IMG/VR virus record: IMGVR_UViG_3300042923_000082
Span: 1-52,452 of that record
Length of the DNA stretch: 52,452 bases
Direction: 5' to 3' (one strand)
Origin: a virus
Taxonomy: Duplodnaviria > Caudoviricetes
Made by a program: the position numbers and the translations under genes. Each line of letters begins with the position of its first letter. The first letter of the stretch is position 1. Below, in pieces: positions 163 through 52,143 of the stretch. Below the pieces are notes generated by a model, which had not been told where the DNA came from, did no database searches, and saw only the letters and a list, made by a program, of their open reading frames with translations.

Positions 163-579
163 ATGCAAATATATAATACAGAATTATGTCACTTTGGAAT
201 CAAAGGTATGAAGTGGGGTAAAGGACAATCTACTTTTGAAAACAATAAAAAAATGTTAAAGAAAGATGCAATAAACACAGTTAAGTTCCAAAACGAAGAT
301 ACTAAAAGAGAATCAAACAAGCATTATTCTAAATATGAAAGATCAATCCAAAAAGAAGCTTATAAGAATGTGATGTCTGGTAAAGTAGTAAGAAAACAAA
401 CTGGTAAAACTTGGAATTTTAATAGTGATGATTTAAAGACCATAGATGATGCCCGTATAGAATATGGCAAAAGAGAAACTAAAAAGAACATGTTAAAGAT
501 AGGTCTATTAACTATTGGCTCAGCAGCTAGTTTGGTTGGAGCTAATTATCTAGCTGAAATGAATATGATTAAAAGATAA
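163..579 (+). CDS. Hypothetical protein with N-terminal ELxHFGxKGMxWG leader and C-terminal hydrophobic segment (putative internal virion protein)
   Basis: MQIYNTELCHFGIKGMKWG; SD AGGTG; C-terminal IGLLTIGSAASLVGA. Confidence 0.75.
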   Translation: MQIYNTELCHFGIKGMKWGKGQSTFENNKKMLKKDAINTVKFQNEDTKRESNKHYSKYERSIQKEAYKNVMSGKVVRKQTGKTWNFNSDDLKTIDDARIEYGKRETKKNMLKIGLLTIGSAASLVGANYLAEMNMIKR

Positions 580-611
580 CTATATAAAAACTAATAGAAA
601 GGAGCATTGAA

Positions 612-935
612 GTGGCCAAGAATACATCTAAAGGTATAGGAAAGTCTAGACCTGGTTTAACACCTGAATCTAGAGAAAATCAATTAATATCATTGGCCAT
701 CGATTTGGCCGAGAAACAATTAAAGGAAGGTTCTGCATCGTCACAAGTAATATCACACTTCCTAAAATTAGGATCTACAACTAGCATGTTAGAGAAGCAA
801 ACGTTGGCGAAAAACTTAGACTTAATAACAGCTAAAACAGAAGCTATTAAATCTGGAAAAGTAATAGAAGAATTATATACAAACGCCTTAGCGGCGATGA
901 GGAGTTACAGTGGGAACAATAATTCGGACATATAA
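612..935 (+). CDS. Probable terminase small subunit
   Basis: GTG start with SD AGGAG; small helical protein next to the genome end, HNH and terL; mostly positional. Confidence 0.5.
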   Translation: MAKNTSKGIGKSRPGLTPESRENQLISLAIDLAEKQLKEGSASSQVISHFLKLGSTTSMLEKQTLAKNLDLITAKTEAIKSGKVIEELYTNALAAMRSYSGNNNSDI

Positions 936-1323
936 TGAGTTAATGAATTTTAAAACTTTTGATGAAAGATTTGAGTATCTAAAACTTAATGGTAGAGTTT
1001 CAGACTTAACATTTGGATTCGATAGATACTTAAACCAGGTATTCTATAAATCTCAAATATGGTTAGACACTAGGAGAGATATTATAATTCGTGATCTAGG
1101 ATGTGATCTCGGATTAGACGGTTATGAAATTTATAAGAACATAATAATTCATCACATGAATCCTATTTCAAAAGAAGACATATTAGATAATACGGATTAT
1201 TTAATAAATCCAGATTATTTAATAGCCACATGTTTACGAACGCACAATGCGATTCACTATGGTGATAAATCTCCAAATATAATAACTGATAGAAGTAGAG
1301 GAGATACTTGTCCTTGGAAATAG
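910..1323 (+). CDS. HNH endonuclease (packaging-associated)
   Basis: RD-x-GC, IHHMNP...TCLRTHNAIH motif; position near the terminase. Confidence 0.8.
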   Translation: MGTIIRTYNELMNFKTFDERFEYLKLNGRVSDLTFGFDRYLNQVFYKSQIWLDTRRDIIIRDLGCDLGLDGYEIYKNIIIHHMNPISKEDILDNTDYLINPDYLIATCLRTHNAIHYGDKSPNIITDRSRGDTCPWK

Positions 1324-1341
1324 ATAGGAGGTGATTACATT

Positions 1342-1692
1342 ATGGATAGTATACTAAACAACACGAAAAAGTTATTAGGAATAGATGTCACCGATGACAG
1401 TTTCGATACTGACATCACAACAATTATCAATTCAACAATATTCTCTCTATCACAGATGGGTATAGGTCCTGTTACAGGTTTCGTAGTAACTTCAATTGAC
1501 GATACATGGACTGACTGGATTAACACTACAACTATAAATTTAGAAGGGATAAAAACTTATCTATACTTAAAAACAAAACTAATATTCGATCCTCCACCAA
1601 ATTCTACAGTTATAGAAGCTTTCAATAATAATTTAAGCGAACTAGAATGGAGAATGATGTTAGCTGTAGAAACAAATAATTTGGAGGTGTAA
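1342..1692 (+). CDS. Head-tail connector/adaptor protein
   Basis: SILxxxKKLLGI...FDxDI...YLYLKTKLIFDPP pattern typical of siphovirus head completion proteins; SD AGGAGG. Confidence 0.65.
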   Translation: MDSILNNTKKLLGIDVTDDSFDTDITTIINSTIFSLSQMGIGPVTGFVVTSIDDTWTDWINTTTINLEGIKTYLYLKTKLIFDPPPNSTVIEAFNNNLSELEWRMMLAVETNNLEV

Positions 1693-1694
1693 AA

Positions 1695-2582
1695 ATGCAA
1701 GTATATAACACTGAACTTTATCACTTCGGTGTTAAAGGGATGAAATGGGGGCATCATACAAAAGTAGATATAACAAGTGCTAAATCGAGTGTTAATAAAG
1801 CTATATATTCAATAGGTGCAAAAGTTAATCCAAGAGAATTAAAATATAAAGTTCGCAAAGTAACTAATAAAGTAAATGATGATATTAAATTATTATCAGA
1901 TTTAACTTTACAATCGTTAAAACAGTCAGGAACTCTTCCATCAAATAAAAATGCACTTAAGGCAATAGAAAGTGTTGGGATAACAGCACATAAAAATGCT
2001 GTGTATAGTAATTTAAATAAAAACGATTTACAGAATTTAAAGACTTATACTGATTCTGCTAGATTTTCCAGAAGTGTTAATGGATATTTAGCCATTGGAG
2101 AACCAAAAGAATATGCTCGTGAAGCTGAAAAATTAAAACGTACACTTCAGAAAAACGCGGTTGATAATCAAACAGTATATAGGAGCTGTAATCTAAAGTT
2201 CTCGGTAAATGGTGTAGCCAAGAAACTGAATTCAATAGATGAAAAAGAAATGGAAAGTTTATTTGCTGGAATGTCAAATAATTATTCTGGAAAATCAAAT
2301 AAAGAAAACAGAGTATTCTCAACAAGTACTTCACCGCTATTTGCAATTGATACTTGGAGAGCTGTAAATCCAACAGCAGCTTCGACTTATAATACTTACA
2401 TGGTTATTAATTGTAAGAAATGTCCTGGTGTTTTAGCTGACGGAAAAACAAGTGACGGAAAAGCTCTTGTTAATACACGTAGTAATCAAGAAGCTATTCT
2501 AGCACCGAATAAATTAACTTATAAAAAATTAGAATTCGATAAAGAACGTGGTATGTTTGCAATAACTGTCGATGCCACTTAA
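1695..2582 (+). CDS. ADP-ribosyltransferase (R-S-E / VIP2-like) with N-terminal ELxHFGxKGMxWG leader
   Basis: LKTYT...VNGYL helix, VYRS (R), FSTSTS (S-T-S), NQEAIL (catalytic E) in the correct order. Confidence 0.75.
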   Translation: MQVYNTELYHFGVKGMKWGHHTKVDITSAKSSVNKAIYSIGAKVNPRELKYKVRKVTNKVNDDIKLLSDLTLQSLKQSGTLPSNKNALKAIESVGITAHKNAVYSNLNKNDLQNLKTYTDSARFSRSVNGYLAIGEPKEYAREAEKLKRTLQKNAVDNQTVYRSCNLKFSVNGVAKKLNSIDEKEMESLFAGMSNNYSGKSNKENRVFSTSTSPLFAIDTWRAVNPTAASTYNTYMVINCKKCPGVLADGKTSDGKALVNTRSNQEAILAPNKLTYKKLEFDKERGMFAITVDAT

Positions 2583-2599
2583 ATAATGGAGGTGATTAA

Positions 2600-3136
2600 A
2601 TGTGGGAATCTAAAGTAGATAAAGACTATAGAAATTTTGCAGAACGAATGGGTAGTTTCGAAGACGACTTAGATTTGTCTAGTGATGATTTAAAACATAG
2701 TAAGGTTATAGTAACTAGAAATAGATCAGCTATAATTAATGAAGACGAAATAACCCATTTCGGAATTAAAGGAATGCGTTGGGGTCGTCGTAGTAATTTT
2801 GTAGGACCACCAAAACCAAAACACAGAATAAATACTAATGACTTTAATGCTATTGGAGCTTCAGCTAGAGCTGGTCAAAGTGTATCAACTCTAGGACAGA
2901 CAATAAATCGCGGAGGTTTCAATGGTAAAGTTCTTAAGACCGCTAAAAGTTTAAGTGATGATGATTTGAAAAAATTAACGAATAGACTCAATCTGGAAAA
3001 TAATTACATGAATGCTACAACACAACAAGCCGGTAGAAGTAAGGTTGAGTCTATACTATCCACAGCAGGAGCAACCTTTGGTGTAGTAGCAAGTGCCGCT
3101 TTAATGGTTGATGCTATTTCTAAAGCTAGAGGATAG
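2600..3136 (+). CDS. Hypothetical protein with HFGIKGMRWG motif and C-terminal hydrophobic segment
   Basis: DDLKH and EITHFGIKGMRWG; LSDDDLKKLTNRLNLE; C-terminal AGATFGVVASAALMV. Confidence 0.7.
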   Translation: MWESKVDKDYRNFAERMGSFEDDLDLSSDDLKHSKVIVTRNRSAIINEDEITHFGIKGMRWGRRSNFVGPPKPKHRINTNDFNAIGASARAGQSVSTLGQTINRGGFNGKVLKTAKSLSDDDLKKLTNRLNLENNYMNATTQQAGRSKVESILSTAGATFGVVASAALMVDAISKARG

Positions 3137-3149
3137 GACGTGATTCAAA

Positions 3150-4895
3150 ATGGCACTAAATAATACTGCGGTTCCCATCTACTATGGACAATTTAGAGAT
3201 TCTGTAATACGTGGAGAGATACCAGTATGTAAAGAAATTGCCATGGAGATGAATCGTATAGATGATCTTATAGATAATCCTGGAATTTACTATGATGACG
3301 AAGCAGTTGAAGGATTCATACTATACTGTAATGAGGAGTTAACCCTTACTGATGGTTCGCCTATGCAATTACTAGATACGTTTAAACTATGGGCCGAACA
3401 AATATTCGGTTGGTATTATTACGTTGAGAAAAGTATTTATGTGCCTAGCTCGGATGGTCATGCTCCTGGAAGATATGAGAAGAGACGAGTTAAGAAGCGT
3501 CTTATAAATAAACAATATCTGATAGTAGCTAGAGGTGCAGCAAAATCCATGTATGCCGAGTGTATACAAAACTACTTTCTCAATGTTGACACTTCAACAA
3601 CTCATCAGATAACCACAGCCCCAACTATGAAACAAGCGGAAGAAGTAATGGCTCCGTTTCGAACCTCGATTATACAAAGTCGTGGACCATTATACAAGTT
3701 CTTAACTGAAGGTTCCATACAAAATACTACAGGTAGTAAAGCAAATAGACAAAAGTTAGTGGCTACTAAGAAGGGTATAGAAAACTTTCTTACTGGATCA
3801 CTGCTAGAAGTAAGACCAATGACTATTAATAAATTGCAGGGGCTGAGACCCAAAGTAACCACGATTGATGAATGGTTATCTGGAGACATTAGAGAAGACG
3901 TCGTTGGTTCAATAGAACAAGGAGCTTCAAAAGTTGATGACTGGTTAATAGTCGCTATAAGTTCAGAAGGTACAGTTCGTAATGGAGCTGGAGATACAAT
4001 CAAAATGGAGTTAGCCGACATACTAAAAGGCGATTATATAAATCCCCATGTTAGTATTTGGCATTATAAAATGGACAGTCTTGAAGAAATTAACAATCCT
4101 GATCTATGGTCTAAGGCTAATCCTAATTTAGATAAGACCGTATCATACGAGACATATCAATTAGATGTTGAACGAGCTGAAAATGCTCCAGCTTCTAGAA
4201 ATGATATATTAGCGAAACGTTTCGGAATACCTATGGAAGGATTAACATACTTCTTTACTTACGAAGAAACACTCCCACACAAACATAGAGAATACTGGCA
4301 ACTACCATGCGCTCTTGGTGCCGATTTATCTCAAGGAAATGACTTCTGTGCATTCACGTTTATGTTCCCACTTAACGATGGTAGTTTTGGCATTAAGACA
4401 AGAGCTTACATAACAAATTTAACGTTATCTAAGTTACCATCAGCAATGAGATTTAAATACGACCAATTCGTAGAGGAAGGTTCATTAATTGTTTTAGAAG
4501 GAACTATGTTGGAGATGGAAGAAGTATATGACGATCTAGATAATCATATAATTGCTTGCGATTACGATGTGAGATGTTTTGGGTATGACCCATATAATGC
4601 TAAATATTTTGTCGAAAGATGGGAAATTGAAAATGGATCATTCGGAATAGTTAAAGTTATACAAGGAGCTAAGACTGAATCAGTTCCACTTGGAGAATTA
4701 AAGAATCTAAGTGAGGAACGAATGCTATTATTTGATGAAGATTTAATGTCATTCACCATGGGTAACTGTATAACACTAGAAGATACGAATGGTAATAGAA
4801 AATTATTAAAGAAACGGAACGAGCAAAAGATAGACTGCGTGTCAGCTATGATGGATGCTCTCGTAGCTTATAAACTAAATAAAGATGCTTTTTAG
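3150..4895 (+). CDS. terL: Terminase large subunit
   Basis: Walker A-like ARGAAKS, Walker B TIDE, nuclease GADLS and KIDCVSAMMDA. Confidence 0.93.
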   Translation: MALNNTAVPIYYGQFRDSVIRGEIPVCKEIAMEMNRIDDLIDNPGIYYDDEAVEGFILYCNEELTLTDGSPMQLLDTFKLWAEQIFGWYYYVEKSIYVPSSDGHAPGRYEKRRVKKRLINKQYLIVARGAAKSMYAECIQNYFLNVDTSTTHQITTAPTMKQAEEVMAPFRTSIIQSRGPLYKFLTEGSIQNTTGSKANRQKLVATKKGIENFLTGSLLEVRPMTINKLQGLRPKVTTIDEWLSGDIREDVVGSIEQGASKVDDWLIVAISSEGTVRNGAGDTIKMELADILKGDYINPHVSIWHYKMDSLEEINNPDLWSKANPNLDKTVSYETYQLDVERAENAPASRNDILAKRFGIPMEGLTYFFTYEETLPHKHREYWQLPCALGADLSQGNDFCAFTFMFPLNDGSFGIKTRAYITNLTLSKLPSAMRFKYDQFVEEGSLIVLEGTMLEMEEVYDDLDNHIIACDYDVRCFGYDPYNAKYFVERWEIENGSFGIVKVIQGAKTESVPLGELKNLSEERMLLFDEDLMSFTMGNCITLEDTNGNRKLLKKRNEQKIDCVSAMMDALVAYKLNKDAF

Positions 4896-4911
4896 AAAGG
4901 AGGTATTCACA

Positions 4912-5376
4912 ATGCAAATATATAACGACGAACAACTCTATCACTTTGGCATCAAAGGTATGCACTGGGGTAAACGAAAATACGACGGTCATACATTAAC
5001 TGATAAAGAAAAAAAAGGAGTATCAAAAGAATACACATCGAATATGAAGAAAGCCACTAACAATATAAAAAAACAAGAATTGGATATCCATGTTAAATCA
5101 TATAATAAAGCCGCTAATAATATGAATAATGGCGGTATTGATAAATTTAATAAACAACAAGAAAAAAAATACGGATCAAATTATATGAATAGAAAAGATT
5201 ATGAGAATGATTATATGAAGTTATTCGATAGCACATACTCTAAATACAGAACTGAAACTGTAAGTAATTTACTTAAAAATGATAAAAATTTTAAAGAAGG
5301 TCAAAAATTAGTTGATAAATATAAGATGCTTGAATGGGATAAATTAGCTAAAGATAATCAACAATTTATTAAATAA
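4912..5376 (+). CDS. Hypothetical protein with QLYHFGIKGMHWG leader, between terL and portal
   Basis: SD AGGAGG before ATG 4912 (better start than 4885); MQIYNDEQLYHFGIKGMHWG. Confidence 0.75.
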   Translation: MQIYNDEQLYHFGIKGMHWGKRKYDGHTLTDKEKKGVSKEYTSNMKKATNNIKKQELDIHVKSYNKAANNMNNGGIDKFNKQQEKKYGSNYMNRKDYENDYMKLFDSTYSKYRTETVSNLLKNDKNFKEGQKLVDKYKMLEWDKLAKDNQQFIK

Positions 5377-5383
5377 TAGAAAG

Positions 5384-6736
5384 GTGAGTAATATGGGAAT
5401 TAAAGATAGACTCCAGCATGCCTGGAATGCGTTTACAAACCGAGATCCAACAGATAATTATAGATACTCAGGTGAATACAGTAGTTCATATAGACCAGAT
5501 AGACCTAGATTGTCTAGAGGTAATGAACGTTCTATTGCTACATCGGTATTCAATAGAATTGCTATGGATGCTGCTGCTATAAACATGAGTCATGCTAAGA
5601 TAGATCAAAATGGAAGGTTTATGTCTTATGTGAATTCAGGTTTAAATAATTGTTTAACTTTGGAAGCTAATAAAGATCAAACAGGTAGAGCTTTTATACA
5701 AGATGTAGTATTATCTATGTTAGATGAAGGTTGTGTAGCTATAGTTCCAGTAGATACAAATATCAATCCTGCTAATTCAGCAAGTGTTGACATAGAGACT
5801 ATGAGAGTTGGTAAAATAAAAGAATGGTATCCTAATCATGTTCTTGTAGAATTATATAACGACCATACTGGTATAAAACAAGATATTAAGTTGGCTAAGA
5901 GTACTATAGGAATTGTCGAAAACCCTTTGTATGCGGTTATAAATGAACCAAATAGTACTCTTCAACGATTAATTCATAAACTGGTATTATTGGATAGTGT
6001 TGATAATCAGAGTTCATCTGGCAAATTAGACATGGTAATTCAGTTACCTTATGTTATTAAAACGGATGCTAGGAGAAGAGAAGCTGACAAACGAAAGAAG
6101 GATCTAGAAGATCAATTAGCTGGATCTAAGTATGGTATAGGTTATATAGACGGTACTGAAAAGATAACTCAATTGAATAGACCAGTAGAAAATAATCTAA
6201 TGTCACAAATAGAATATTTAACGAGTATGCTTTACGGCCAGTTAGGTATAACTACAAGTGTTTTAGATGGTACTGCCGATCCAAAGGTGATGCTTAACTA
6301 TTTCAATAGAACCGTAGAACCTATACTATCAGCTATATCTGACGAAATGAAGAGAAAGTTTCTAAGTAAAACTGCTAGAACACAAGGTCAATCTGTTATA
6401 TTCATTAGAGATCCATTTAAATTATTACCATTAGATAACTTAGCAGAAATAGCTGATAAATTCACTAGAAACGAAATAGCATCAGCTAACGAGATACGTC
6501 AAGTAATAGGTATGCAACCATCTAGCGATCCTAAAGCTGATAAGTTACAAAATTCAAACATGCCTCAACCACCAGAATCTCAAATGACGCCTACTGATGA
6601 TCAAACCAAAACATCTGGCGGAATAGATATGGAAGCTGAGAGAACAAAGATACTAAATGATGTATTGGATTCTTTAGAAGGTGAAATCGATAACATAATT
6701 CAAAATGTGTCAGGTGGTGATTCTAATGAATCATGA
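5384..6736 (+). CDS. Portal protein
   Basis: 450 aa after terL; HK97-like portal features (NRIAMD, LTLEAN, NEIRQVIG). Confidence 0.88.
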   Translation: MSNMGIKDRLQHAWNAFTNRDPTDNYRYSGEYSSSYRPDRPRLSRGNERSIATSVFNRIAMDAAAINMSHAKIDQNGRFMSYVNSGLNNCLTLEANKDQTGRAFIQDVVLSMLDEGCVAIVPVDTNINPANSASVDIETMRVGKIKEWYPNHVLVELYNDHTGIKQDIKLAKSTIGIVENPLYAVINEPNSTLQRLIHKLVLLDSVDNQSSSGKLDMVIQLPYVIKTDARRREADKRKKDLEDQLAGSKYGIGYIDGTEKITQLNRPVENNLMSQIEYLTSMLYGQLGITTSVLDGTADPKVMLNYFNRTVEPILSAISDEMKRKFLSKTARTQGQSVIFIRDPFKLLPLDNLAEIADKFTRNEIASANEIRQVIGMQPSSDPKADKLQNSNMPQPPESQMTPTDDQTKTSGGIDMEAERTKILNDVLDSLEGEIDNIIQNVSGGDSNES

Positions 6737-7565
6737 TGAGATCCGAAATTTAGTTAATGGTCTATTTAATACTGAATTGAAACATTATGCATCGGATTAT
6801 TATGATCCAGAAAAAGCACATGAATATTATCTACAGAATCGTAAACTAAAGGGTAGAACCACTAGTGGATTATCAGATGAAGGTAAAGAAGTATGGACTG
6901 ACACCAAGGCTAATATAACTGCTAAAAAGAAAAGTGAAATAAATGAGTATAAAAAACAAGAAGAAATAGACATACAGAATGCAAGATCTAAAGCCGAAGC
7001 TACTAGAATATCAATAACTAACAAATTAAAAAGTTTAAATGATATGTTAAATTCCAAATATAAAACTAATACTGAAGGACTAACAAAATCGCAAAAGGAA
7101 CAGTTAGAAGTAATAGCTAGACAAAGAGCTCAAGAACAAAAGCAAATACAAGCCTCAAAACAAAGAAAAATAGAAAAAATAAATAAGGATGATGATTTAT
7201 CTGATGAAGAAAAAGCTTCTAAAAAAGAAGGAATAAACGAAAATTATAGTGAAGATTTACAAGAAGTTAAAGAAGAGTATAGTAAAAAAGCAGAAGAAAC
7301 TAGAACTGAAGTATCAAAAGAACGTCAAAAATTATCATCAGATAAGAAAATAGAGTCTACTAAAAATTCAGAAGAGTCTAAAACAGAAAGAACAAAGGTA
7401 GCTTCAGAATTAAAGAGTGCTATACAAACTGCTCGTGATACGTATTCTAAAAATAAAGAATCATTAAATTCGTCTTATGAAGATATTTATCAGGATGAAT
7501 ATGATGAAATAAAATCACAATATCAATCTACTAAAAAAAGTAGAAAAAGTAGAAAAAATAAATAG
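6726..7565 (+). CDS. Highly charged coiled-coil protein with NTELKHY motif (putative internal head protein)
   Basis: SD GGTGG before ATG 6726; NTELKHYASDYYDPEKAHEYY; K/E-rich. Confidence 0.65.
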   Translation: MNHDEIRNLVNGLFNTELKHYASDYYDPEKAHEYYLQNRKLKGRTTSGLSDEGKEVWTDTKANITAKKKSEINEYKKQEEIDIQNARSKAEATRISITNKLKSLNDMLNSKYKTNTEGLTKSQKEQLEVIARQRAQEQKQIQASKQRKIEKINKDDDLSDEEKASKKEGINENYSEDLQEVKEEYSKKAEETRTEVSKERQKLSSDKKIESTKNSEESKTERTKVASELKSAIQTARDTYSKNKESLNSSYEDIYQDEYDEIKSQYQSTKKSRKSRKNK

Positions 7566-7576
7566 GAGGATGAGAA

Positions 7577-9280
7577 ATGAAATACGATTTCAGTGGATGG
7601 GCCACCAAGAATAATTTAAAATGTTCTGATGGATTAACAATAATGCAAAATGCTTTTCAAGATAATGATGGTAGAACAGTTCCTTTAATTTGGAATCACA
7701 GGCATAATGAGGCCAGCAATGTTTTAGGACATGCTATGTTAGAAAATCGTGAAGACGGGGTATATGCCTACTGTACATTTAATAATACTCCATCTGCAAA
7801 TGATGCAAAAGACATGGTTAAGCATGGAGATATAAAATCGTTATCAATATATGCTAATCAATTAAAAAAACAAGGTTCTTATGTAATGCATGGTCAAATA
7901 AGAGAGGTATCACTCGTATTAGCTGGAGCTAATCCTGGTGCCTATATAGATGATGTTATGGTTCACGGCTTACTTCAAAATGATGCTGGTATATTATATA
8001 CTGGAGAAGAAATTGAATTAAGTCACAGCGATAATGAAAAAGAAGGGGATGCTAAAAAAGTGGAAAATCAATCAAGTGAAAAAACAATTCAAGAAGTGTT
8101 TGACACTTTCAATGAAGAACAAAAAAATGTAGTATATGCTATAGTAGGAGCTGCTGTGGAAGAAGAAAAAACTAAAAATACAGAAATACAACAATCAAAT
8201 ATTGATGATAAAGGTGGAGAAGAAATGAAACATAACGTATTTAACAAAGAAGATAACACACAAGGTGATGTATTATCACATGCTGAAATAGCAACAGTAC
8301 TTTCAGATGCTAAAAGATATGGTAGTTTAAAAGATGCAGTATTAGCTCATGGAATAACTAATATAGATTATTTATTCCCAGATTTCAAAAATGTTACTGA
8401 TGTTCCTGGATTTATTCAAAGACAAAATACTTGGGTTGATGGTGTATTAGCCTCAGTTCATCATACTCCATTCGCTAGAATCAAATCAACTTATGCTGAT
8501 ATAACTGCTGATGATGCTAGAGCTAAAGGTTATATTAAAGGTAATTTAAAGAAAGAAGAAGTATTCTCATTATTAAAGAGAACTACATCACCAACTACAA
8601 TCTACAAGAAACAAAAGCTTGATAGAGATGATGTTGTAGATATAACTGATTTCGATGTTGTAGCATGGTTAAAGACAGAAATGAGAATGATGCTTAATGA
8701 AGAAATTGCAAGATCTGTATTGATAGGAGATGGTAGATTATCATCTAGTGATGATAAAATCAATGAGCAAAATATTAGACCTGTTTGGACTGATGCTGAT
8801 CTATACACTATAAAAACTGCTTATGACGATAAGTTACTAACAACTGATGATGCTAAAGCTAAAACATTTATTAGAACTGCAGTTAAAGCCAGAAAAGATT
8901 ATAAAGGTTCTGGTCAACCAACTCTATACACAACTGAAGACATGCTAACTAATATTTTATTAATGGAAGATACTACTGGTAGAACAATATATGAGAGTGT
9001 TGATAAAGTTAAATCTGCATTAAGAGTTAGTGATATCGTTACAATTCCGTCTATGGAATCTTTAACTAGAGTAGATGGAGCAATCACTAAAACACTAGAA
9101 GGAATAATTGTAAATCTTGTAGATTATAACATTGGTGCTGACAAGGGCGGAGCTGTTAACCTGTTCGACGACTTCGATATCGATTACAATGCTCAAAAAT
9201 ACTTAATTGAAACTAGATGTTCAGGGGCTTTAATTAAACCATATGCAGCTATAGCTGTTGAATCTTTTACATCGGTTTAA
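7577..9280 (+). CDS. Prohead protease-scaffold-major capsid fusion protein
   Basis: HK97-type protease motifs PLIWNH-x-H, SLSI, EVSLVLAGANPGA; acidic linker; capsid-like C-terminus (EEIARSVLIGDG, KYLIETRCSGAL). Confidence 0.9.
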   Translation: MKYDFSGWATKNNLKCSDGLTIMQNAFQDNDGRTVPLIWNHRHNEASNVLGHAMLENREDGVYAYCTFNNTPSANDAKDMVKHGDIKSLSIYANQLKKQGSYVMHGQIREVSLVLAGANPGAYIDDVMVHGLLQNDAGILYTGEEIELSHSDNEKEGDAKKVENQSSEKTIQEVFDTFNEEQKNVVYAIVGAAVEEEKTKNTEIQQSNIDDKGGEEMKHNVFNKEDNTQGDVLSHAEIATVLSDAKRYGSLKDAVLAHGITNIDYLFPDFKNVTDVPGFIQRQNTWVDGVLASVHHTPFARIKSTYADITADDARAKGYIKGNLKKEEVFSLLKRTTSPTTIYKKQKLDRDDVVDITDFDVVAWLKTEMRMMLNEEIARSVLIGDGRLSSSDDKINEQNIRPVWTDADLYTIKTAYDDKLLTTDDAKAKTFIRTAVKARKDYKGSGQPTLYTTEDMLTNILLMEDTTGRTIYESVDKVKSALRVSDIVTIPSMESLTRVDGAITKTLEGIIVNLVDYNIGADKGGAVNLFDDFDIDYNAQKYLIETRCSGALIKPYAAIAVESFTSV

Positions 9281-20467: not shown

Positions 20468-21607
20468 ATGGGAGATATAATTAAATTCAGGAAAGGATTA
20501 AAGACCAGTCTACCAACCTTAAGACTAGCAGAACCTGGATTTACTACTGATGAAAAAAGATTATATATAGGCGGTACATCTGGTAATGTTCCGTTACCTA
20601 GTAAAGAGGATATTGATAGTATCGATGTACAATTGTTAGAAAAGGCGAATGCAAATTGGATTATAAATGGTGGCTTAGAGTTTTGGCAAAGAGGAACAAC
20701 AATAGTAAATCCAGTCACTCAAACATATTTAGCTGATAGATTTGAAATAACTTGTAGTTTAACAGGAATAGCGCCAACCACAATAACACATTCTAGACAA
20801 ACTTTTTCAACACCAGATATTCCTAATGCTTCAAATTTTTATAGAATAGTAAGTGATAGCGTGGGTGTGTTAAATTCAAATGATCTTTACAGGTTAAATC
20901 ACAGTATAGAAAATGGTGCACGAAAATTATGTGGTAATGGTAAAAAAGTTACAATTTCTTTTTATGCTAGGAGCTCTATAACCAATAAAAAACTTGGAGT
21001 ATTTTGTATACAAAATTATGGTTCAGGTGGAAGTCCGTCTTCTTTCGAATTTTTAAATGGTACTAATTTCATATTAAATAATACTTGGCAAAAATATTCT
21101 TTAACAATTAATACTAATACTTTAGTGGGTAAAACGTTTGGTAGTAATAATGACGATTATTTGAGAGTTGTCTTTACAAACGCATACGGAAGTGGAACGG
21201 CACAATATGTTGGAGATACAATAACAGAAACTTTTGGAATTGGATATGTAGATATAGCACAAATTAAACTAGAAAGTGGAGATAAAGCAACACTTTTTGT
21301 ACCAAGACTTTATGGAGAAGAATTAGCATTGTGTTTACGTTATTACCTTGGTAGTGGAACTTCTATAAACAATGGAATTTATACTAATTCAATGACCTAT
21401 TTGTCACCTACGCATGTTCGTATGAGAGCAAATCCATCTATAGCAAGTGGCACTATATGGTATAATGATGGCGGAATTGCAAGTGGTTTCACTTTCACGG
21501 GAAGTTTAACTGGTAATGGTATATCAATTACAGCAAATAAAATAGCACACGGCATTAATACAGCAACACACGCTGATATTTCCGGTTTAGATGCTGAAAT
21601 ATATTAA
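20468..21607 (+). CDS. Tail fibre / receptor-binding protein
   Basis: LAEPGFTTDEKRLYIG shoulder; NWIINGG..WQRG, KLExGxKATxF, EELALCLRYY carbohydrate-binding-like domain. Confidence 0.78.
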   Translation: MGDIIKFRKGLKTSLPTLRLAEPGFTTDEKRLYIGGTSGNVPLPSKEDIDSIDVQLLEKANANWIINGGLEFWQRGTTIVNPVTQTYLADRFEITCSLTGIAPTTITHSRQTFSTPDIPNASNFYRIVSDSVGVLNSNDLYRLNHSIENGARKLCGNGKKVTISFYARSSITNKKLGVFCIQNYGSGGSPSSFEFLNGTNFILNNTWQKYSLTINTNTLVGKTFGSNNDDYLRVVFTNAYGSGTAQYVGDTITETFGIGYVDIAQIKLESGDKATLFVPRLYGEELALCLRYYLGSGTSINNGIYTNSMTYLSPTHVRMRANPSIASGTIWYNDGGIASGFTFTGSLTGNGISITANKIAHGINTATHADISGLDAEIY

Positions 21608-23601: not shown

Positions 23602-24390
23602 ATGAATATTATAGATAACAATCTAAGTTTTGGATCTATGAATATGAATAATCACCCATCAATGTTAATAGTACATCATTTAGAAGCTGAAGGAGAAAAC
23701 TGGACAGTTGATATGATTCATAATATGCATATAAATGAACATGGTTGGGCTGGTATAGGATATCATTATTATATAAGAATTGATGGTTCCATATATAAAG
23801 GACGTCCAGATAAGGCTATAGGAGCTCATTGTCAGGGGTGTAATACCAATACACTTGGTATAGCATTTGAGGGTGATTATGACTATAGATCTGATATGAC
23901 AGATTCTCAATATAATGCTTGGTGTGAATTGAAAGCTTATTTATGTAATAAGTACGGCAATATGCCGGTATATGGACACAGGGATAATCCAAATACACCA
24001 GGGAGTTCAGAATGTCCAGGTGCATATTTTCCATTAGATAAAGTTAAGAAAGCTAATATCGTGAACTTACACAAACAAGGATGGAATGAAAATAAAAAAG
24101 GTTGGTGGTATTGTACATCATTAGAAGATGGTTATTACTATAAAAACTGTTGGAAATCGATTGATGGCGAATATTATCTATTTAACGATGAAGGATATGC
24201 AATAGCTAATTACTGGTCTAAGTGGAAAGATAAATGGTACTACTTAAGATCAAACTGTATGATGGCTAAGTCACAATGGCTATGGATAGATAGTGTATGT
24301 TATTGTTTCGATAAGGATGGAGTAATGTATGAAGATTGTAAAACTCCAGATGGATATTATGTAGATAAGTCAGGAGCATGGATCAAATAA
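23602..24390 (+). CDS. Endolysin: N-acetylmuramoyl-L-alanine amidase (Amidase_2) with cell-wall-binding repeats
   Basis: IVHH, GWAGIGYHYYI, GAHC, GHRD, ECPG; C-terminal W/Y-rich repeats (WYYL, YCFD). Confidence 0.92.
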   Translation: MNIIDNNLSFGSMNMNNHPSMLIVHHLEAEGENWTVDMIHNMHINEHGWAGIGYHYYIRIDGSIYKGRPDKAIGAHCQGCNTNTLGIAFEGDYDYRSDMTDSQYNAWCELKAYLCNKYGNMPVYGHRDNPNTPGSSECPGAYFPLDKVKKANIVNLHKQGWNENKKGWWYCTSLEDGYYYKNCWKSIDGEYYLFNDEGYAIANYWSKWKDKWYYLRSNCMMAKSQWLWIDSVCYCFDKDGVMYEDCKTPDGYYVDKSGAWIK

Positions 24391-26689: not shown

Positions 26690-27412
26690 ATGTTAAATAA
26701 ATTAATAAGAAAAGACAAACAATTCTTACTAAATTTCACAGCAGTTTTAGGAGTTGGTCTAACTATGGTATCGACAATAAGGGATACTACTAAAGCTTGT
26801 AAATTAGTAACTGAAGATATGACATTAAAAGAGAAAATAAAGAAGACTTGGAAATGTTATATACCATCAGGGGTTATAGCAACTAGTACTATGCTTTGTA
26901 TAATTTACTCGGATAAGGTATCTATGAATGAAAAAATAGCTTTAATAAATACCTTAACCACCATACAAGGTAATTATAGAGATTTAAGAACTGCTGTGGA
27001 TGAGACATGTGATCCCAAGACAAAAGAAGAAATACTTAAGAGGACTGTTAAAAATAAAGTACCACGAGAATTATACATTGAACGAACTGAAGAAAAAATA
27101 TTTTATGAAGAATATAGTGGTAAACACTTCACTAGTACAATCGATAATGTTCTTAAAGCAGAATATATGTTTAATAAACAATTATCGATTGTTGGTTATG
27201 CATCACTAAACGAATTTTATGATTTTCTTGGAGTATCTAAAACTACTGAAGGTGAATATCTTGGTTGGTCAGTATATGATGGATATTTCGGATCATCTTC
27301 TATTAATCCATGGGTAGACTTTGAACATAGTAAAATGGAAGACGATAACGGTATTGAATATTTTCATATAGAGTATAGTAATCAACCAGATGTAAATTAT
27401 GATATATTTTAA
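26690..27412 (+). CDS. DUF6353-like protein, paralog 1
   Basis: N-terminal hydrophobic helices; GYASLNEFYDFLG...GW. Confidence 0.7.
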   Translation: MLNKLIRKDKQFLLNFTAVLGVGLTMVSTIRDTTKACKLVTEDMTLKEKIKKTWKCYIPSGVIATSTMLCIIYSDKVSMNEKIALINTLTTIQGNYRDLRTAVDETCDPKTKEEILKRTVKNKVPRELYIERTEEKIFYEEYSGKHFTSTIDNVLKAEYMFNKQLSIVGYASLNEFYDFLGVSKTTEGEYLGWSVYDGYFGSSSINPWVDFEHSKMEDDNGIEYFHIEYSNQPDVNYDIF

Positions 27413-27955: not shown

Positions 27956-28681
27956 GTGATGAAACCAATTATTAAAACAGCGAGAAACTTATTAAATAGA
28001 AATGCCTCGGATCTATTATTAGTGGGCGGAGTAGCTTGTATATTAGGCGGTGGTATATTAGCCATTAGACAAACCCCTAAAGCAGTACAATTAATGGAAA
28101 ATAAGAAAGATAAACCAACTATTGATAAAATTAAAACAGTAGCTCCATTATATATACCACCATTGCTACTTACGGGAGTCGGTATAGCACAAATTGTATG
28201 CTCTAGAAATATAACTAACAATAAGATAGCAGCAATGGCAACCGCTTACACAGTATCAGAGACGGCTTTTAAGACTTACAGAGAAAAGGTTAAAGATATA
28301 GTAGAACCTGATAAATATGAAGAGATTAAAAGAGAAGTTGCCGACGAACAGTTAAGAAGAGATCCAATAGGTAATAAGGAAATAATAATGACTACTAGGG
28401 GTAACGTTCTAATGTACGACAATATGTCAGGAAGATATTTAAAGAGTACAATGGATGATGTAGACAGAGCTGTAAATATTCTAAACAAAAGAATGATGAG
28501 TGACATGACTGTATTGTTAAATGATTTTTATACTGAAATAGGTCTGGATGTCATTAAACTAGGATGTGAGGTTGGATGGGATATTGAGAAAGACTCAATA
28601 GATGTTAGATACACTTCAACTATAGCTGACAATGGAGAACCTTGTTTAGTTATGGATTACGAGGTTGTTGTATTAAGATAA
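27956..28681 (+). CDS. DUF6353-like protein, paralog 2
   Basis: TPKA...YIPP...LNDFYTEIG...VGW. Confidence 0.7.
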   Translation: MMKPIIKTARNLLNRNASDLLLVGGVACILGGGILAIRQTPKAVQLMENKKDKPTIDKIKTVAPLYIPPLLLTGVGIAQIVCSRNITNNKIAAMATAYTVSETAFKTYREKVKDIVEPDKYEEIKREVADEQLRRDPIGNKEIIMTTRGNVLMYDNMSGRYLKSTMDDVDRAVNILNKRMMSDMTVLLNDFYTEIGLDVIKLGCEVGWDIEKDSIDVRYTSTIADNGEPCLVMDYEVVVLR

Positions 28682-30019: not shown

Positions 30020-30934
30020 ATGAATAAATTAAAATTACAACAAACTTTTAACAAATATAAATTCAAGACTATAAAGAATTCACCACAAATACTTATGTAT
30101 GCAGGAGCTATTGGAGTTGTAGTATCGGGAGTATTGGCTTGTAAAGCAACGTTAAAGCTTACTGGGATATTAGAAGAATCTAGAATTTCACTAAATAAAA
30201 TAACTGAAGTTGAAAATGATGAAACTATAAATTATACAAACGAAGATGCTAGAAAAGATAAAGCTATAGTATATACCTCAACTGCTTTAGATATTGCTAA
30301 GATTTATTCGCCTTCTATAATATTAGGTGGAGTATCAATAGTAGCTATGATTCAATCTCATAATATATTAAACAGAAGAAATGCTGCATTAGCTGCTGCT
30401 TTCGCAACGGTATCTGAATCCTTCTCTAAATATAGAAAAGCAGTAGTTGATAAATATGGAGAAAGAGCTGACTATGAATTTAAGCATGGGATTAGATCTG
30501 AGAAGATTGAAGTAGAAGAGACTGATGAAAATGGTAAGACTAAGAAGAAAAAAGTAAGTGTTGATGTTATCGATGGATTAGACGGGTATAGTGACTATGC
30601 TAGATTCTATGACGATGGTTGTGTTGGTTGGGAGAAGGATCCTGACTATAATAAAATGTTCCTAAAAGCTCAACAACAGTATGCTAATGATAGATTAGTA
30701 GCTCAAGGATATTTATTCTTAAACGACGTTTACAGAATGCTAGGAATCCCAGATTCTAAAGCAGGCCAAATTGTAGGTTGGACATACGATCCTGAAAATC
30801 CAAAGGGTGATAACTATGTTGACTTCGGTATATTCGATGTAAGTAAAGAAAATTCTAGGGATTTTGTTAATGGATACGAGGCAACTATATTACTAGATTT
30901 TAATGTTGATGGAAATGTTTGGGAATATATGTGA
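30020..30934 (+). CDS. DUF6353-like protein, paralog 3
   Basis: SPQIL...ACKAT...GYLFLNDVYRMLG...GQIVGW...LDFNVDG. Confidence 0.75.
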   Translation: MNKLKLQQTFNKYKFKTIKNSPQILMYAGAIGVVVSGVLACKATLKLTGILEESRISLNKITEVENDETINYTNEDARKDKAIVYTSTALDIAKIYSPSIILGGVSIVAMIQSHNILNRRNAALAAAFATVSESFSKYRKAVVDKYGERADYEFKHGIRSEKIEVEETDENGKTKKKKVSVDVIDGLDGYSDYARFYDDGCVGWEKDPDYNKMFLKAQQQYANDRLVAQGYLFLNDVYRMLGIPDSKAGQIVGWTYDPENPKGDNYVDFGIFDVSKENSRDFVNGYEATILLDFNVDGNVWEYM

Positions 30935-47283: not shown

Positions 47284-47564
47284 GCCCACTTTTGTTTTTA
47301 TAAATGTGTCCATGCCCACTTTTTTGTAGATAATTTATTATATTTGGTAATAATTGGAAGAATATTTTGTAAATTTGGATACATTTCTGCCCACTTTGCC
47401 CACTTTTTGCCCACTTTTTGCCCACTTTTGTTAAACCCTGCAGGACAGTGATACCAACGGTTTGCGGACTTTTTGCCCACTTTCCCACTTATTTCTCTTA
47501 TTTATTATGATAAAAAATATAGTATATATAGAGAAGTTGTCCAAATAAAGTGGGCAAGTGGGCA
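47283..47564. repeat. TGCCCACTT iteron cluster, putative replication origin
   Basis: Direct copies at 47283, 47313, 47388, 47397, 47408, 47419, 47474 (variant at 47483); inverted AAGTGGGCA at 47548 and 47556; AT-rich spacers; non-coding. Confidence 0.8.
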
Positions 47565-48449: not shown

Positions 48450-48479
48450 ACGCGAAAATTACATGCCCTTTTATAGAGA
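48450..48479 (+). promoter_or_regulatory. Variant promoter-like motif P14
   Basis: ACGC GAAAATT ACA TGCCC TTTTATAGAGA; flanked by a GGGCA/TGCCC inverted repeat. Confidence 0.7.
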
Positions 48480-49399: not shown

Positions 49400-52143
49400 T
49401 GAATGATGATCATCTTGAACATTATGGTACTAAAAAACATTCAGGAAGATATAAATGGGGTTCAGGCAACGATCCATACCAACATAGTGGAGATTTTTTA
49501 AGTAGAGTTGACACATTAGAAAAAAGTGGAATGAGTGAAAAAGATGTAGCTGAAAGTCTTGGTCTAAACACAAGCCAACTTAGAATACAAAAATCACTAG
49601 CTAATTCAGAACGTAAAAATCTATTGTATGAAGAAGCGGTAAGTTTAAGAAATAAAGGTTATTCTCTTTCTAAAACCGCTGAATTAATGGGTTACAATAA
49701 TGACTCATCAATTAGATCATTATTAGATGAAAATAGTTTAGAAAGATCTAAGCAAGCTACAAAAACTGCTGACTTTCTAAAGAAACAAGTTGATGAAAAA
49801 GGTATGATAGATGTTGGTACTGGAGTAGAAAGAGAGCTAGGAGTGTCTAAAGAGAATCTTAAGAAATCTCTTTATATATTGGAGATGCAAGGATATCAAA
49901 CTTTTGGAGGAGGAATAACTCAAGCTACAAACAAAAATCAACAGACTAATTTAAAAGTTCTAACTCCACCAGGAACAGAGCATAAAGATATTTATGAATT
50001 TGATAAGATAAAATCCATAGGTAATTATGTTTCTAGAGATGGTGGTGAGACTTTCGACTCATTCAAATACCCAAGTAGTTTAGATAGTAAAAGATTAGAA
50101 ATAAACTATGGAGATAAAGGTGGATCTGATAAGGATGGAGTTGTAGAATTAAGAAGGGGAGTTAAAGATCTATCATTAGGTAATTCAAACTATGCTCAAG
50201 TTAGAGTCATGGTCGATGATAAACATTATATTAAAGGAATGGCTGTATATACTGATGATTTACCAAAGGGTGTTGATGTTAGGTTTAATACTAATAAACC
50301 TTCTGGAACTCCTTTGGAAAAAGTATTAAAACCTATAAAAGAAGATCCAGATAATCCTTTCGGTTCATTGATAAAAGCAGGTGGTCAAAATTATTATGAT
50401 GATCCTAATGGTAAACATATAGACCCAATAACTGGAAAAAAACAATCATTGTCATTAATTAATAAAAGAGCAGAAGAAGGAGATTGGACCGAATGGAAAG
50501 ATAAATTACCTTCGCAATTTTTGGCTAAACAAAATCTATCACTTATCAAGAAACAATTAGATCTAACAAAAAGTGAAAGAGAATCTGAATTTGATGAAAT
50601 TAATTCACTATCTAATCCAACAATTAAAAAAGCTTTATTAAAAACGTTTTCTGATGATTGTGATTCTGCTGCAGTTCATTTAAAGTCAGCAGCTCTACCA
50701 AGACAGAAGTATCATGTAATACTTCCTATAAACTCATTAAAGGACAACGAAGTATATGCACCTAATTATGAGAATGGTGAAAAACTAGCTTTAGTGAGAT
50801 TTCCACATGGTGGTACATTTGAAATTCCTATACTAACAGTTAATAATAAAAATAAAGATGGTAAGAATATTATAGGATCTAATGCTAAAGATGCTGTTGG
50901 TATAACTAGTAAAGTAGCTGAAAGATTATCAGGTGCAGATTTTGATGGTGATACAGTATTAACAGTACCTACAGGAAAGAATGTAAACATAACTTCTACT
51001 AATCCGTTAAAAGGGTTAGAAGGATTCGATAGTAAGTCTTATAAATATTCTAAGTCTAAGACTGATAAAGATGGTAATGAACATTACTATACTGCTGACG
51101 GTACAGAATTTAGAAGAATGAAGAACACACAAACCGAAATGGGTAAAATTTCTAATCTTATAACTGATATGACTTTAAAAGGTGCTTCAGAAGATGATCT
51201 AGCTAAAGCAGTTAGACATTCAATGGTTGTTATAGATGCTGAAAAGCACATACTAAACTATAAGAAGTCTGAAGTAGATAATGGTATAGCTTCTTTAAAA
51301 AGTAAGTATCAAGGTCATTATGACGATCAAGGTAAGTGGCATTCTGGTGGGGCATCGACATTATTATCTAGAGCTAAATCCAAAATAGATATAGTTAAAC
51401 GAAAAGGATCTCCAATTATAGATCCAATTACAGGAGAACAATCGTGGAAAGAGAATTATCAAGAATACACTGACCCTAAAGGAAAAGTTCAAGTTAGAGC
51501 TCAAAAGTCTACTAAGATGTTCGAGACTAATGATGCTCGTACATTATCAAGTGGAACACCTCAAGAAGAAGCTTATGCTGACTATGCTAATAAGATGAAG
51601 TCTTTAGCTAATCAAGCTCGTAAAGAGATGATCTCAACAGGAGACATCAAGTATTCCGCTGAAGCTAAAACTAAGTATTTAAATGAGGTTAATTCTTTAA
51701 ACGCCCAGTTAAATGTATCACTAATGAACGCTCCAAAGGAAAGGCGTGCTCAAGTAATAGCAAATACTGCTATTAAAGCTAAGCAACAAGAGTATCCAGA
51801 TTTATCTAAAGGTGAGTTAAAGAAGATAAGTCAACAAGCTTTAAACGCTGCACGAATTCAGGTTGGAGCTAAGAGAGAACTTATAAAGATCTCAGATAAA
51901 GAATGGGAAGCTATACAAGCCGGTGCAATAAGTCCTAACAAACTAAGTCAGATAATAAACAACTCTGACATGGACATACTAAGACAGAGAGCTACACCTA
52001 GATCTACTAAAGAACTAAGTCAAGTTAAGATTAATAAGATTAATTCAATGTCTAAGTCTGGTTATAGTACTGCTGAGATAGCTAAAAGTTTAGGAATGTC
52101 AAGCACAACTATTGTTAACTACATGAAAGGAGGATTGGATTAA
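49396..52143 (+). CDS. Single-chain double-psi beta-barrel DNA-dependent RNA polymerase (YonO/RdRP-like) with HTH domains
   Basis: KDG, AQVR-x8-IKG (barrel B-like); LVRFPH and LSGADFDGD (catalytic barrel); HTH-like segments at the N- and C-termini. Confidence 0.8.
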   Translation: MMNDDHLEHYGTKKHSGRYKWGSGNDPYQHSGDFLSRVDTLEKSGMSEKDVAESLGLNTSQLRIQKSLANSERKNLLYEEAVSLRNKGYSLSKTAELMGYNNDSSIRSLLDENSLERSKQATKTADFLKKQVDEKGMIDVGTGVERELGVSKENLKKSLYILEMQGYQTFGGGITQATNKNQQTNLKVLTPPGTEHKDIYEFDKIKSIGNYVSRDGGETFDSFKYPSSLDSKRLEINYGDKGGSDKDGVVELRRGVKDLSLGNSNYAQVRVMVDDKHYIKGMAVYTDDLPKGVDVRFNTNKPSGTPLEKVLKPIKEDPDNPFGSLIKAGGQNYYDDPNGKHIDPITGKKQSLSLINKRAEEGDWTEWKDKLPSQFLAKQNLSLIKKQLDLTKSERESEFDEINSLSNPTIKKALLKTFSDDCDSAAVHLKSAALPRQKYHVILPINSLKDNEVYAPNYENGEKLALVRFPHGGTFEIPILTVNNKNKDGKNIIGSNAKDAVGITSKVAERLSGADFDGDTVLTVPTGKNVNITSTNPLKGLEGFDSKSYKYSKSKTDKDGNEHYYTADGTEFRRMKNTQTEMGKISNLITDMTLKGASEDDLAKAVRHSMVVIDAEKHILNYKKSEVDNGIASLKSKYQGHYDDQGKWHSGGASTLLSRAKSKIDIVKRKGSPIIDPITGEQSWKENYQEYTDPKGKVQVRAQKSTKMFETNDARTLSSGTPQEEAYADYANKMKSLANQARKEMISTGDIKYSAEAKTKYLNEVNSLNAQLNVSLMNAPKERRAQVIANTAIKAKQQEYPDLSKGELKKISQQALNAARIQVGAKRELIKISDKEWEAIQAGAISPNKLSQIINNSDMDILRQRATPRSTKELSQVKINKINSMSKSGYSTAEIAKSLGMSSTTIVNYMKGGLD

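Follow-up and report, generated by a model that had tools for sequence, protein, structure and literature searches.

A recurrent motif in the packaging and head module

The window analysed here is the whole of virus record IMGVR_UViG_3300042923_000082, a stretch of 52,452 bases with 31.5% G+C and an estimated completeness of 87%. In its packaging and head module a short protein motif, (E/Q)-(L/I)-x-H-F-G-(I/V)-K-G-M-x-W-G, is present in four plus-strand open reading frames (ORFs), named after their first nucleotide as ORFs 163, 1695, 2600 and 4912 (Table 1). The genes bearing this motif, or tag, flank the gene of the terminase large subunit (TerL) on both sides and precede the portal gene. The motif belongs to a single family, Pfam DUF7211 (PF23847), an entry of 25 positions described as a 'family of unknown function', and all four ORFs are members of it, scoring 30.6-35.6 bits against a gathering cut-off of 27. 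When the whole record was searched in six frames with DUF7211, the same four places were recovered (32.3-38.1 bits) and no fifth match appeared at E ≤ 1. A hidden Markov model (HMM) trained on 198 distinct tags from other phages recognises the four window tags with E-values of 3e-12 to 4e-11, and a degenerate DNA pattern of the motif core has four exact matches in the window against none in 100 dinucleotide shuffles. Pairs of window tags differ by two to six synonymous codons out of 13, hence it is the protein that is conserved and not a DNA repeat. Downstream of the tag, the four proteins have no BLAST similarity to one another (best E 0.08). The original prediction for this DNA had described a shared tag on otherwise unrelated proteins, and both parts of that description stand.

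The same prediction took the tag to be N-terminal. This is so in ORFs 163, 1695 and 4912, whereas in ORF 2600 the motif occupies residues 50-62, behind an acidic leader of 49 residues; the ATG at 2600 has a GGAGGTG ribosome site of its own, and the closest relative, locus L019, has a tag 59 residues from the first in-frame start codon. ORF 4912 was listed from 4885 but truly begins at the ATG at 4912, which has a AAGGAGGT site. The position of this gene is orthologous to those of FP_oengus gp69 and Arthrobacter phage Circum gp9, and the profile phrog_7021 covers its residues 15-141. Queried with ORF 4912, the ESM Atlas returned DUF7211 clusters only, with no structural neighbour above TM 0.38.

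Beyond the window, 212 distinct instances define the consensus [DN]-E-L-x-H-[FY]-G-[VI]-K-G-M-[KR]-W-G-[VI]-R-[KR]; at positions that the regular expression left free, L is found in 93%, K in 93%, M in 95% and R in 93% of these instances. Complete tagged ORFs (n = 238) have a median length of 172 amino acids (aa). The tails that follow the tag are basic (K 12.4% and R 8.6% versus 10.2% for D plus E) and also rich in Ala, Gly and Ser, and 241 of them fall into 92 BLAST clusters. Measured from the first in-frame start, 333 tags are no more than 35 residues away and 38 are 60 or more residues into the protein, those at 36-59 residues being excluded from both classes. An ATG occurs within 20 codons upstream of 26 of the 38 internal tags, and a start codon plus a Shine-Dalgarno site accompanies 14 of the 38 compared with 14 of 190 control windows, which indicates that some 'internal' tags are really N-terminal; the others look like fused neighbours. 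Most of the best 150 representatives, taken from a ranking that favours repeats, contain two to four motifs at a median spacing of 198 residues, with a median tail of 151 residues after the last motif. The notion of a strictly N-terminal label must therefore be abandoned.

Distribution and linkage to one set of head genes

A profile of the four window tags, run against 1.84 billion cluster representatives (clusters at 50% identity), matched 4,575 of them at E ≤ 0.001 and 234 at E ≤ 1e-10. The surroundings of the motif were analysed in two samples. The viral-contig sample comprises at least 80 loci and its seed pattern required H-F-G-[IV]-K-G-M, so that it leans to canonical tags; the 80 loci listed contain 263 motif instances by regular expression, with a mean of 3.3 per locus and up to 8. 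The second sample consists of 77 loci of species-representative genomes with 192 instances, on contigs mostly labelled Clostridia, Bacilli, Actinomycetota or unclassified; the few contigs labelled with other phyla may reflect errors of binning. On sequence grounds, the motif is real, widespread and lineage-specific. It occurs in the isolated phages FP_oengus (gp69), Circum (gp7, two copies; gp9), Curtobacterium phage Eevee (gp11, gp14 and gp15 (two copies)), Lactococcus phage 1706 (orf7, two copies) and ReqiPepy6 (gp013, gp015, gp016 and gp017), and the annotated tagged genes of isolated phages are hypothetical except for an acetyltransferase of Streptomyces phage Bilo. A homolog search with the tag region alone yielded seven homologs (one with GNAT) in the near setting and none in the longer setting, the word index being ill-suited to a 20-residue motif. 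The tag alignment gave no match to solved-structure sequences at E ≤ 10. In the literature search neither the DUF7211 accession nor the motif strings were found mentioned, the single match of one string being an unrelated neurology paper.

By its gene content, the window is a siphophage of about 52 kb that belongs to the lineage of Lactococcus phage 1706, Faecalibacterium phage Oengus and actinophages. All its assigned genes are on the plus strand. They begin with a small phrog_4259 protein, possibly the small terminase subunit, and an HNH endonuclease, followed by the connector, TerL and the portal; then come a coiled scaffold-like ORF, the S78 protease/major capsid fusion, the tail genes and the lysis genes, and finally a long early/middle region with a primase-polymerase and an RNA polymerase (RNAP) of the YonO/QDE-1 kind. 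The protease-capsid fusion has a highly conserved protease domain (residues 1-125) and a variable linker.

Table 1. Tagged ORFs of the window and the genes that serve as their landmarks
Feature	Coordinates (nt)	Strand	Length (aa)	pI	Tag, profile match or conservation
Tagged ORF 1 (ORF 163)	163..579	+	138	9.8	ELCHFGIKGMKWG at nt 181-219; DUF7211 30.6 bits
Conserved small protein; opens the packaging module	612..935	+	107		PHROG match (phrog_4259); homologs in 55/80 viral loci
Head-tail connector; tagged genes commonly come after it	1342..1692	+			Pfam Phage_connect_2
Tagged ORF 2 (ORF 1695)	1695..2582	+	295	9.7	ELYHFGVKGMKWG at nt 1713-1751; DUF7211 31.0 bits
Tagged ORF 3 (ORF 2600)	2600..3136	+	178	9.8	EITHFGIKGMRWG at nt 2747-2785; DUF7211 31.5 bits
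Terminase large subunit (TerL)	3150..4895	+			Homologs in 72/80 viral loci
Tagged ORF 4 (ORF 4912); between terminase and portal genes	4912..5376	+	154	9.5	QLYHFGIKGMHWG at nt 4933-4971; DUF7211 35.6 bits
Portal protein; candidate tag receptor	5384..6736	+			Homologs in 64/80 viral loci
Prohead protease (S78) fused to major capsid protein; candidate tag receptor	7577..9280	+
YonO/QDE-1-like single-chain RNA polymerase, C-terminal helix-turn-helix	49396..52143	+	915		phrog_4291

Landmark genes were located in the loci by phmmer with the window's proteins, and many of the 80 viral loci end at contig ends. TerL was found in 72 of these loci, the connector in 69, the portal in 64, HNH in 61, the protease-capsid fusion in 58 and the phrog_4259 protein in 55. 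TerL is also present in 65 of the 77 genome loci, and a head gene of the lineage in 43 of the 47 genome loci that reach 12 kb. Two viral loci are devoid of nearby head genes, their tagged genes being close to lysis genes and an integrase (7377-9414 of L016 and 7986-8507 of L083); both belong to complete temperate genomes with terminal repeats, in which the same protease-capsid gene (52-62% identity) and additional tags are found elsewhere. As judged from the loci compared, the motif goes only with the TerL, portal and protease-capsid fusion set of this lineage.

Without exception, the 263 instances of the viral loci and the 192 of the genome loci share the strand of the seed tag; in the viral loci this is also the strand of the landmark head genes. 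The small 107-aa gene on one side and the portal gene on the other enclose almost all tags. In the viral loci, 73 are placed between connector and TerL, 51 between TerL and portal, 37 between TerL and HNH, 24 between connector and portal, another 24 between the phrog_4259 gene and TerL, and 20 between TerL and the end of the locus; smaller classes account for 32, and two tags come after the capsid gene. In pairs with unrelated tails, the eight variable residues in front of the motif show 28.3% identity within a locus and 12.8% between loci, a difference that none of 300 label shuffles reached. This likeness within a locus fits a partner encoded by the same phage.

A partial copy of the tag, NTELKHY, had been proposed in ORF 6705-7565 and located at 6726. 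The string is actually at nt 6768-6788, is followed by A instead of G-x-K-G-M, and has an E-value of 14 with the tag HMM, which is noise; one clear homolog reads ELKHYAS, the ORF has no DUF7211 match at E ≤ 1, and the candidate was rejected. The ORF itself is Lys/Glu-rich and scaffold-like, sits between the portal and protease-capsid genes, and has homologs in two of the 80 viral loci. In most relatives the portal gene is directly followed by the protease-capsid gene, with no separate scaffold gene.

Domains behind the tag and the half-motif of the RNA polymerase

Two sets of long tagged proteins were scanned for Pfam domains. Among the 50 longest tagged ORFs of the viral loci, Gln_amidase was found twice and GNAT, CW_7, ADPrib_exo_Tox and 2H phosphoesterase once each; 50 cluster representatives picked for a long segment contained 2H phosphoesterase (nine), GNAT (five), LigT (three), Barstar (one) and CW_7 (one). 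All 100 proteins matched DUF7211. The domains predicted in this way are of effector or counter-defence type.

ORF 1695 had been named an ADP-ribosyltransferase (ART). Of its 406 homologs, the 120 that were listed share 78-100% identity over the query region. In an alignment of the window's own protein with 30 homologs 70-84% identical, 20 of the 31 sequences match PF03496 at E ≤ 1 (best 8.4e-7), and precomputed PF03496 matches exist for four of the listed homologs; the window protein has none at E ≤ 1. The catalytic motifs of ADP-ribosyltransferases are R, S-T-S and [QE]-x-E. Y162-R163-S164, S209-T-S-T-S213 and N264-Q265-E266 are invariant in the 31 sequences, the third motif thus reading N-x-E versus the usual Q/E-x-E. 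Structure models reached a pLDDT of 31.8 from the single sequence and of 43.9 from the 31 sequences, both too low for use. Neither the protein nor its alignment matched solved-structure sequences at E ≤ 10, and tblastn against isolated phages gave no match. The C-terminal half of ORF 1695 appears to be ADP-ribosyltransferase-like; the PF03496 matches that point to this name come from its relatives and not from the window's own protein.

The polymerase at the other end of the window had been listed as a divergent bearer of the tag. ORF 49396 corresponds to a YonO/QDE-1-like two-barrel RNAP by its match to phrog_4291 (1254 bits over residues 3-911) and by the sequence DFDGD, the D-x-D-G-D catalytic loop, at residues 524-528. 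Full-length relatives with 48-51% identity are present in 251 phage records (Arthrobacter, Gordonia, Streptomyces, Lactococcus, Faecalibacterium and others). Many of these records, from phages of Actinomycetota and Bacillota hosts, annotate the enzyme merely as a helix-turn-helix protein. Its N-terminus, HLEHYGTKKHSGRYKWG (nt 49411-49461), contains the first half of the tag. No DUF7211 match was obtained for this N-terminus at E ≤ 1, and the tag HMM gave E 0.37. When a profile of ten RNAP N-termini was compared with that of the tag, the first 11 columns (x-x-L-x-H-Y-G-x-K) aligned with a probability of 94.1%, and none of 200 column shuffles exceeded 47.2%. The RNAP copy is a half-match only, and as a full tag it fails with both HMMs. 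The longer string L-x-H-Y-G-x-K-R-x-S-G-R-Y-P-W-G-S-G is conserved in the polymerases of FP_oengus, 1706 and Circum. In its accessible text, bioRxiv 10.1101/842583 describes an interphylum phage group with the same conserved head genes and RNAP, the RNAP of this 1706/Oengus-type lineage being YonO-like with a D-x-D-G-D motif; that text makes no mention of the tag motif.

The region upstream of the polymerase gene contains a 30-nt element, ACGC-N7-ACA-N5-TATTATGAGAA, in 13 copies on the plus strand between 25251 and 47604, where chance alone would give 0.09; a weaker copy is at 48450-48474. All 13 are in the early/middle region and none in the structural module, and eight are followed within about 40 nt by a Shine-Dalgarno sequence and a start codon. 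The element could be a host sigma-A promoter (TTTACG-16-TATTAT) or a promoter of the phage's own YonO-like RNAP; in the latter case the RNAP would have to arrive with the DNA. Two of three paralogous Pfam DUF6353 genes of the early region (26690-27412, 27956-28681 and 30020-30934) are preceded by the element.

A candidate virion-incorporation module and its alternatives

Taking into account that: (i) the motif is linked to one head-gene set; (ii) the tagged genes are located in the packaging/head operon; (iii) the fused domains are of effector type; (iv) the tails are small and basic, and (v) a tagged protein of phage 1706 is deposited as structural, we propose, as the likeliest reading, that the DUF7211 motif is a virion-incorporation module specific to the siphophage lineage of 1706, Oengus and Mudcat; the chances of this reading we judge to be about even. 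In the model, the tagged proteins would be made late in infection together with the head proteins, and the motif of about 20 residues would dock on a conserved head component encoded by the phage. Candidate receptors would be the portal or the procapsid interior built from the protease-capsid fusions; of the surfaces available inside the prohead, none is as conserved as the protease domain of the fusion. Docking would enclose the attached tail, usually about 150 residues of basic low-complexity sequence and sometimes an enzyme, in the prohead. Once the DNA is packaged, the tagged proteins would remain part of the particle until the next infection, when they would exit along with the DNA, and the delivered enzymes would act before any phage gene is expressed; the ART-like protein of ORF 1695 and, elsewhere, GNAT, 2H-phosphoesterase, glutamine deamidase and Barstar would be examples. 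Proteins with several motifs would be fusions of tandem single-motif genes. The original prediction had inferred, by analogy with phage T4, a modular label that sends cargo into the head for delivery with the DNA, an idea with which the five circumstantial points above agree. The RNAP copy is half supported; strict N-terminality, the copy in the capsid-scaffold ORF and the likeness to the T4 sequence are given up.

The structural label belongs to orf7 of Lactococcus phage 1706, a protein of 462 aa with two motifs that its depositors called 'structural protein'. In that record predicted functions are marked 'putative', and the label of orf7 is without the word. The 2008 description of the phage by Garneau and colleagues reportedly made use of gel bands and mass spectrometry. 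The accessible parts of the FP_oengus and Arthrobacter phage papers mention no mass spectrometry, and in the former the wording on the proteome refers to shared protein content. A complex prediction for the tag (45 residues) with the full protease-capsid protein (567 residues) gave an ipSAE of 0.00 in both runs, which were made without controls and count neither way. Neither of the MuF domains, PF04233 and PF06152, is matched anywhere in the record at E ≤ 1; with no MuF-family minor head protein in the window, that role is free.

Several points weigh against incorporation into the virion. That orf7 was detected in particles by mass spectrometry is what we infer from its unmarked label, and packaging, cleavage and ejection of the tagged proteins are likewise steps that we infer; moreover, the RNAP of the same phage 1706, which has the half-tag, is not labelled structural in its record. 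A strict N-terminal signal would predict neither that about one tag in ten is internal nor top-scoring proteins with two to four motifs some 198 residues apart. ORF 2600 has its 49-residue leader in front of the motif. In the two temperate genomes some tagged genes are next to the integrase, where genes expressed from the prophage are typically found. The likeness of the lead-in residues within a locus may also stem from duplication or partial gene conversion. Finally, a second Pfam domain was found in a minority of the 100 long proteins scanned, so that 'cargo' may be the exception and a basic tail the rule.

This last point leads to an alternative in which the motif is no address label, but the conserved core of a single family of paralogs that evolve fast, namely basic proteins of a minor head, internal or scaffold-like kind. 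Their role would be structural or DNA-contacting, the basic tails neutralising the packed DNA or cross-linking capsomers, for instance, with enzyme fusions as rare, later events. Such a family would account for the absence of other Pfam domains from most tagged proteins, for uniformly basic tails in which Ala, Gly and Ser abound, for the regular spacing of about 198 residues in multi-motif proteins, and for PHROG profiles that reach past the motif, as phrog_7021 does in ORF 4912; the lack of a separate scaffold gene in most relatives also agrees with it. It is less easily reconciled with the missing similarity among the four window tails, the 92 clusters formed by 241 tails, or the presence of unrelated folded enzymes on the same motif. 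We consider it unlikely as it stands, although it overlaps with virion incorporation since both place the proteins in the head.

Alternatively, the tagged proteins might not be virion components at all, the motif docking instead on a conserved cytoplasmic host factor (a chaperone, a protease adaptor, the ribosome or the host RNA polymerase) for takeover. That the motif hardly varies between phages of Bacillota and those of Actinomycetota would suit a universally conserved host target, some tagged genes adjoin the integrase in temperate genomes, and a cytoplasmic phage RNAP contains the first half of the motif. However, the motif goes only with one head-gene set, its genes are in the late packaging/head operon, 1706 orf7 was deposited as a structural protein, and the lead-in before the motif is phage-specific and not universal, all of which makes a host factor a rather improbable partner.

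It could also be argued that the motif is mainly a site of recognition and cleavage by the S78 prohead protease, with the multi-motif proteins as polyproteins and targeting left to other parts of them. The module spacing (median 198 residues) is near the length of the single-motif proteins (median 172 aa), every motif genome checked has the protease-capsid fusion, and in T4 the capsid-targeting sequences are removed by the prohead protease. Nevertheless, 20 conserved residues far exceed what a cleavage site needs, and in 52 aligned fusion proteins no conserved motif-like sequence was found at the protease-capsid junction; cleavage as the main function is decidedly improbable. A signal for secretion or membrane insertion (type VII secretion or a holin-like route, for example), with the proteins acting extracellularly or in the membrane, would suit the Gram-positive hosts, the C-terminal hydrophobic segments of ORFs 163 (residues 113-131, KD19 1.44) and 2600 (residues 152-170, KD19 1.82), the strongly hydrophobic stretches (KD19 ≥ 1.6) in 28 of 255 tails and the CW_7 cell-wall-binding repeats of two tagged proteins, but it is most improbable given a motif that is glycine-rich and basic and not hydrophobic, the lack of a hydrophobic segment in most tails, cargo (ADP-ribosyltransferase, GNAT, Barstar) that acts in the cytoplasm, and the location of the tagged genes in the head module.

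If the motif does direct proteins into the virion, it would resemble known systems in logic. The internal proteins of T4 (IPI-III and Alt) carry a short N-terminal targeting peptide on unrelated small basic proteins and on an ADP-ribosyltransferase, which are packed and injected. This capsid-targeting sequence has about 10 residues, ends in a cleavage site for gp21 (L/I-x-E) and works via the scaffolding core. The logic proposed here is similar, down to the ART cargo, but the T4 sequence has no likeness to the DUF7211 motif, which extends over about 20 residues, occurs in internal and repeated copies and in most members goes without a separate scaffold gene; nor is it strictly N-terminal in the manner of T4, as ORF 2600 and the 38 internal tags illustrate. 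Short terminal peptides also send cargo into a shell of the HK97 fold in the case of the P1 Dar antirestriction head proteins, the inner-body propeptides of the phiKZ type and the cargo-loading peptides of encapsulins. The cargo of such systems includes counter-defence proteins and their receptors are known or partly known; their sequences, as well as the phage or compartment lineages in which they occur, are unrelated to the DUF7211 motif.

The MuF polymorphic toxins of temperate phages offer a second comparison. According to the accessible text of Jamet et al. 2017 (PMC5576092), they combine a conserved N-terminal head module, encoded next to the portal gene, with variable C-terminal toxins that include ADP-ribosyltransferases, and the authors hypothesise head loading and delivery with the DNA. 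The window has neither MuF domain. Tagged genes likewise adjoin the terminase and portal genes (73 and 51 tags in the connector-TerL and TerL-portal intervals), but they are upstream of the portal, whereas MuF genes are downstream of it. Here a minority of members combine the constant module with a variable C-terminal domain, which is one of ADPrib_exo_Tox, Gln_amidase, GNAT, 2H phosphoesterase, Barstar and CW_7. Moreover, the constant part is a 20-residue motif and not a folded domain, many loci have two to eight such genes, and the motif is also present in the virulent phage 1706. By analogy, the motif may be functionally like the T4 targeting sequence or the MuF toxins while being homologous to neither, a view that we would back about half of the time.

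Virion RNA polymerases are packaged by N4 and by crAss-like phages. YonO of SPbeta is not known to be a virion protein. The half-tag, seen here in sequence, raises the possibility that the RNAP of the window is packaged in the way of N4 and crAss-like phages. In the most extended form of the proposal, DUF7211 would be a general cargo-loading peptide of a large lineage of phages of Gram-positive bacteria that docks on the protease-capsid fusion, at its protease/scaffold face, or on the portal; changeable sets of counter-defence and takeover enzymes would be packed and injected, and the half-motif would load the RNAP, which as a virion enzyme would fire the 13 identical promoter-like sites of the early/middle region. 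We put this forward tentatively and think it unlikely to hold in full.

What is new relative to the DUF7211 entry is the restriction to one lineage, the gene position, the multiplicity, the fused domains and a functional hypothesis. Should the motif prove to be a packaging label, its 4,575 clusters would constitute a new class of injected phage proteins recognisable from sequence, common in phages of gut Clostridia, in actinophages and in dairy lactococcal phages. A simple rule would then exist for finding pre-made counter-defence or takeover effectors, namely whatever comes after the motif, and a 20-residue handle would be at hand for loading foreign proteins into the capsids of cultivable model phages. 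Arrival of a YonO-like RNAP with the DNA would become a testable question. Even if the motif is merely the core of a family of minor head proteins, DUF7211 gains a context and a probable location.

Other features of the window include a tail protein with an Mtd_N domain (the N-terminal domain of the major tropism determinant) at 20468-21607 and an endolysin at 23602-24390, in which an Amidase_2 domain is combined with choline-binding repeats, a hint of a host with choline-bearing cell-wall polymers. Direct repeats of 11 nt (GCCCACTTTTT and variants) run through the intergenic region 47388-47494 and are possibly iterons or a replication origin.

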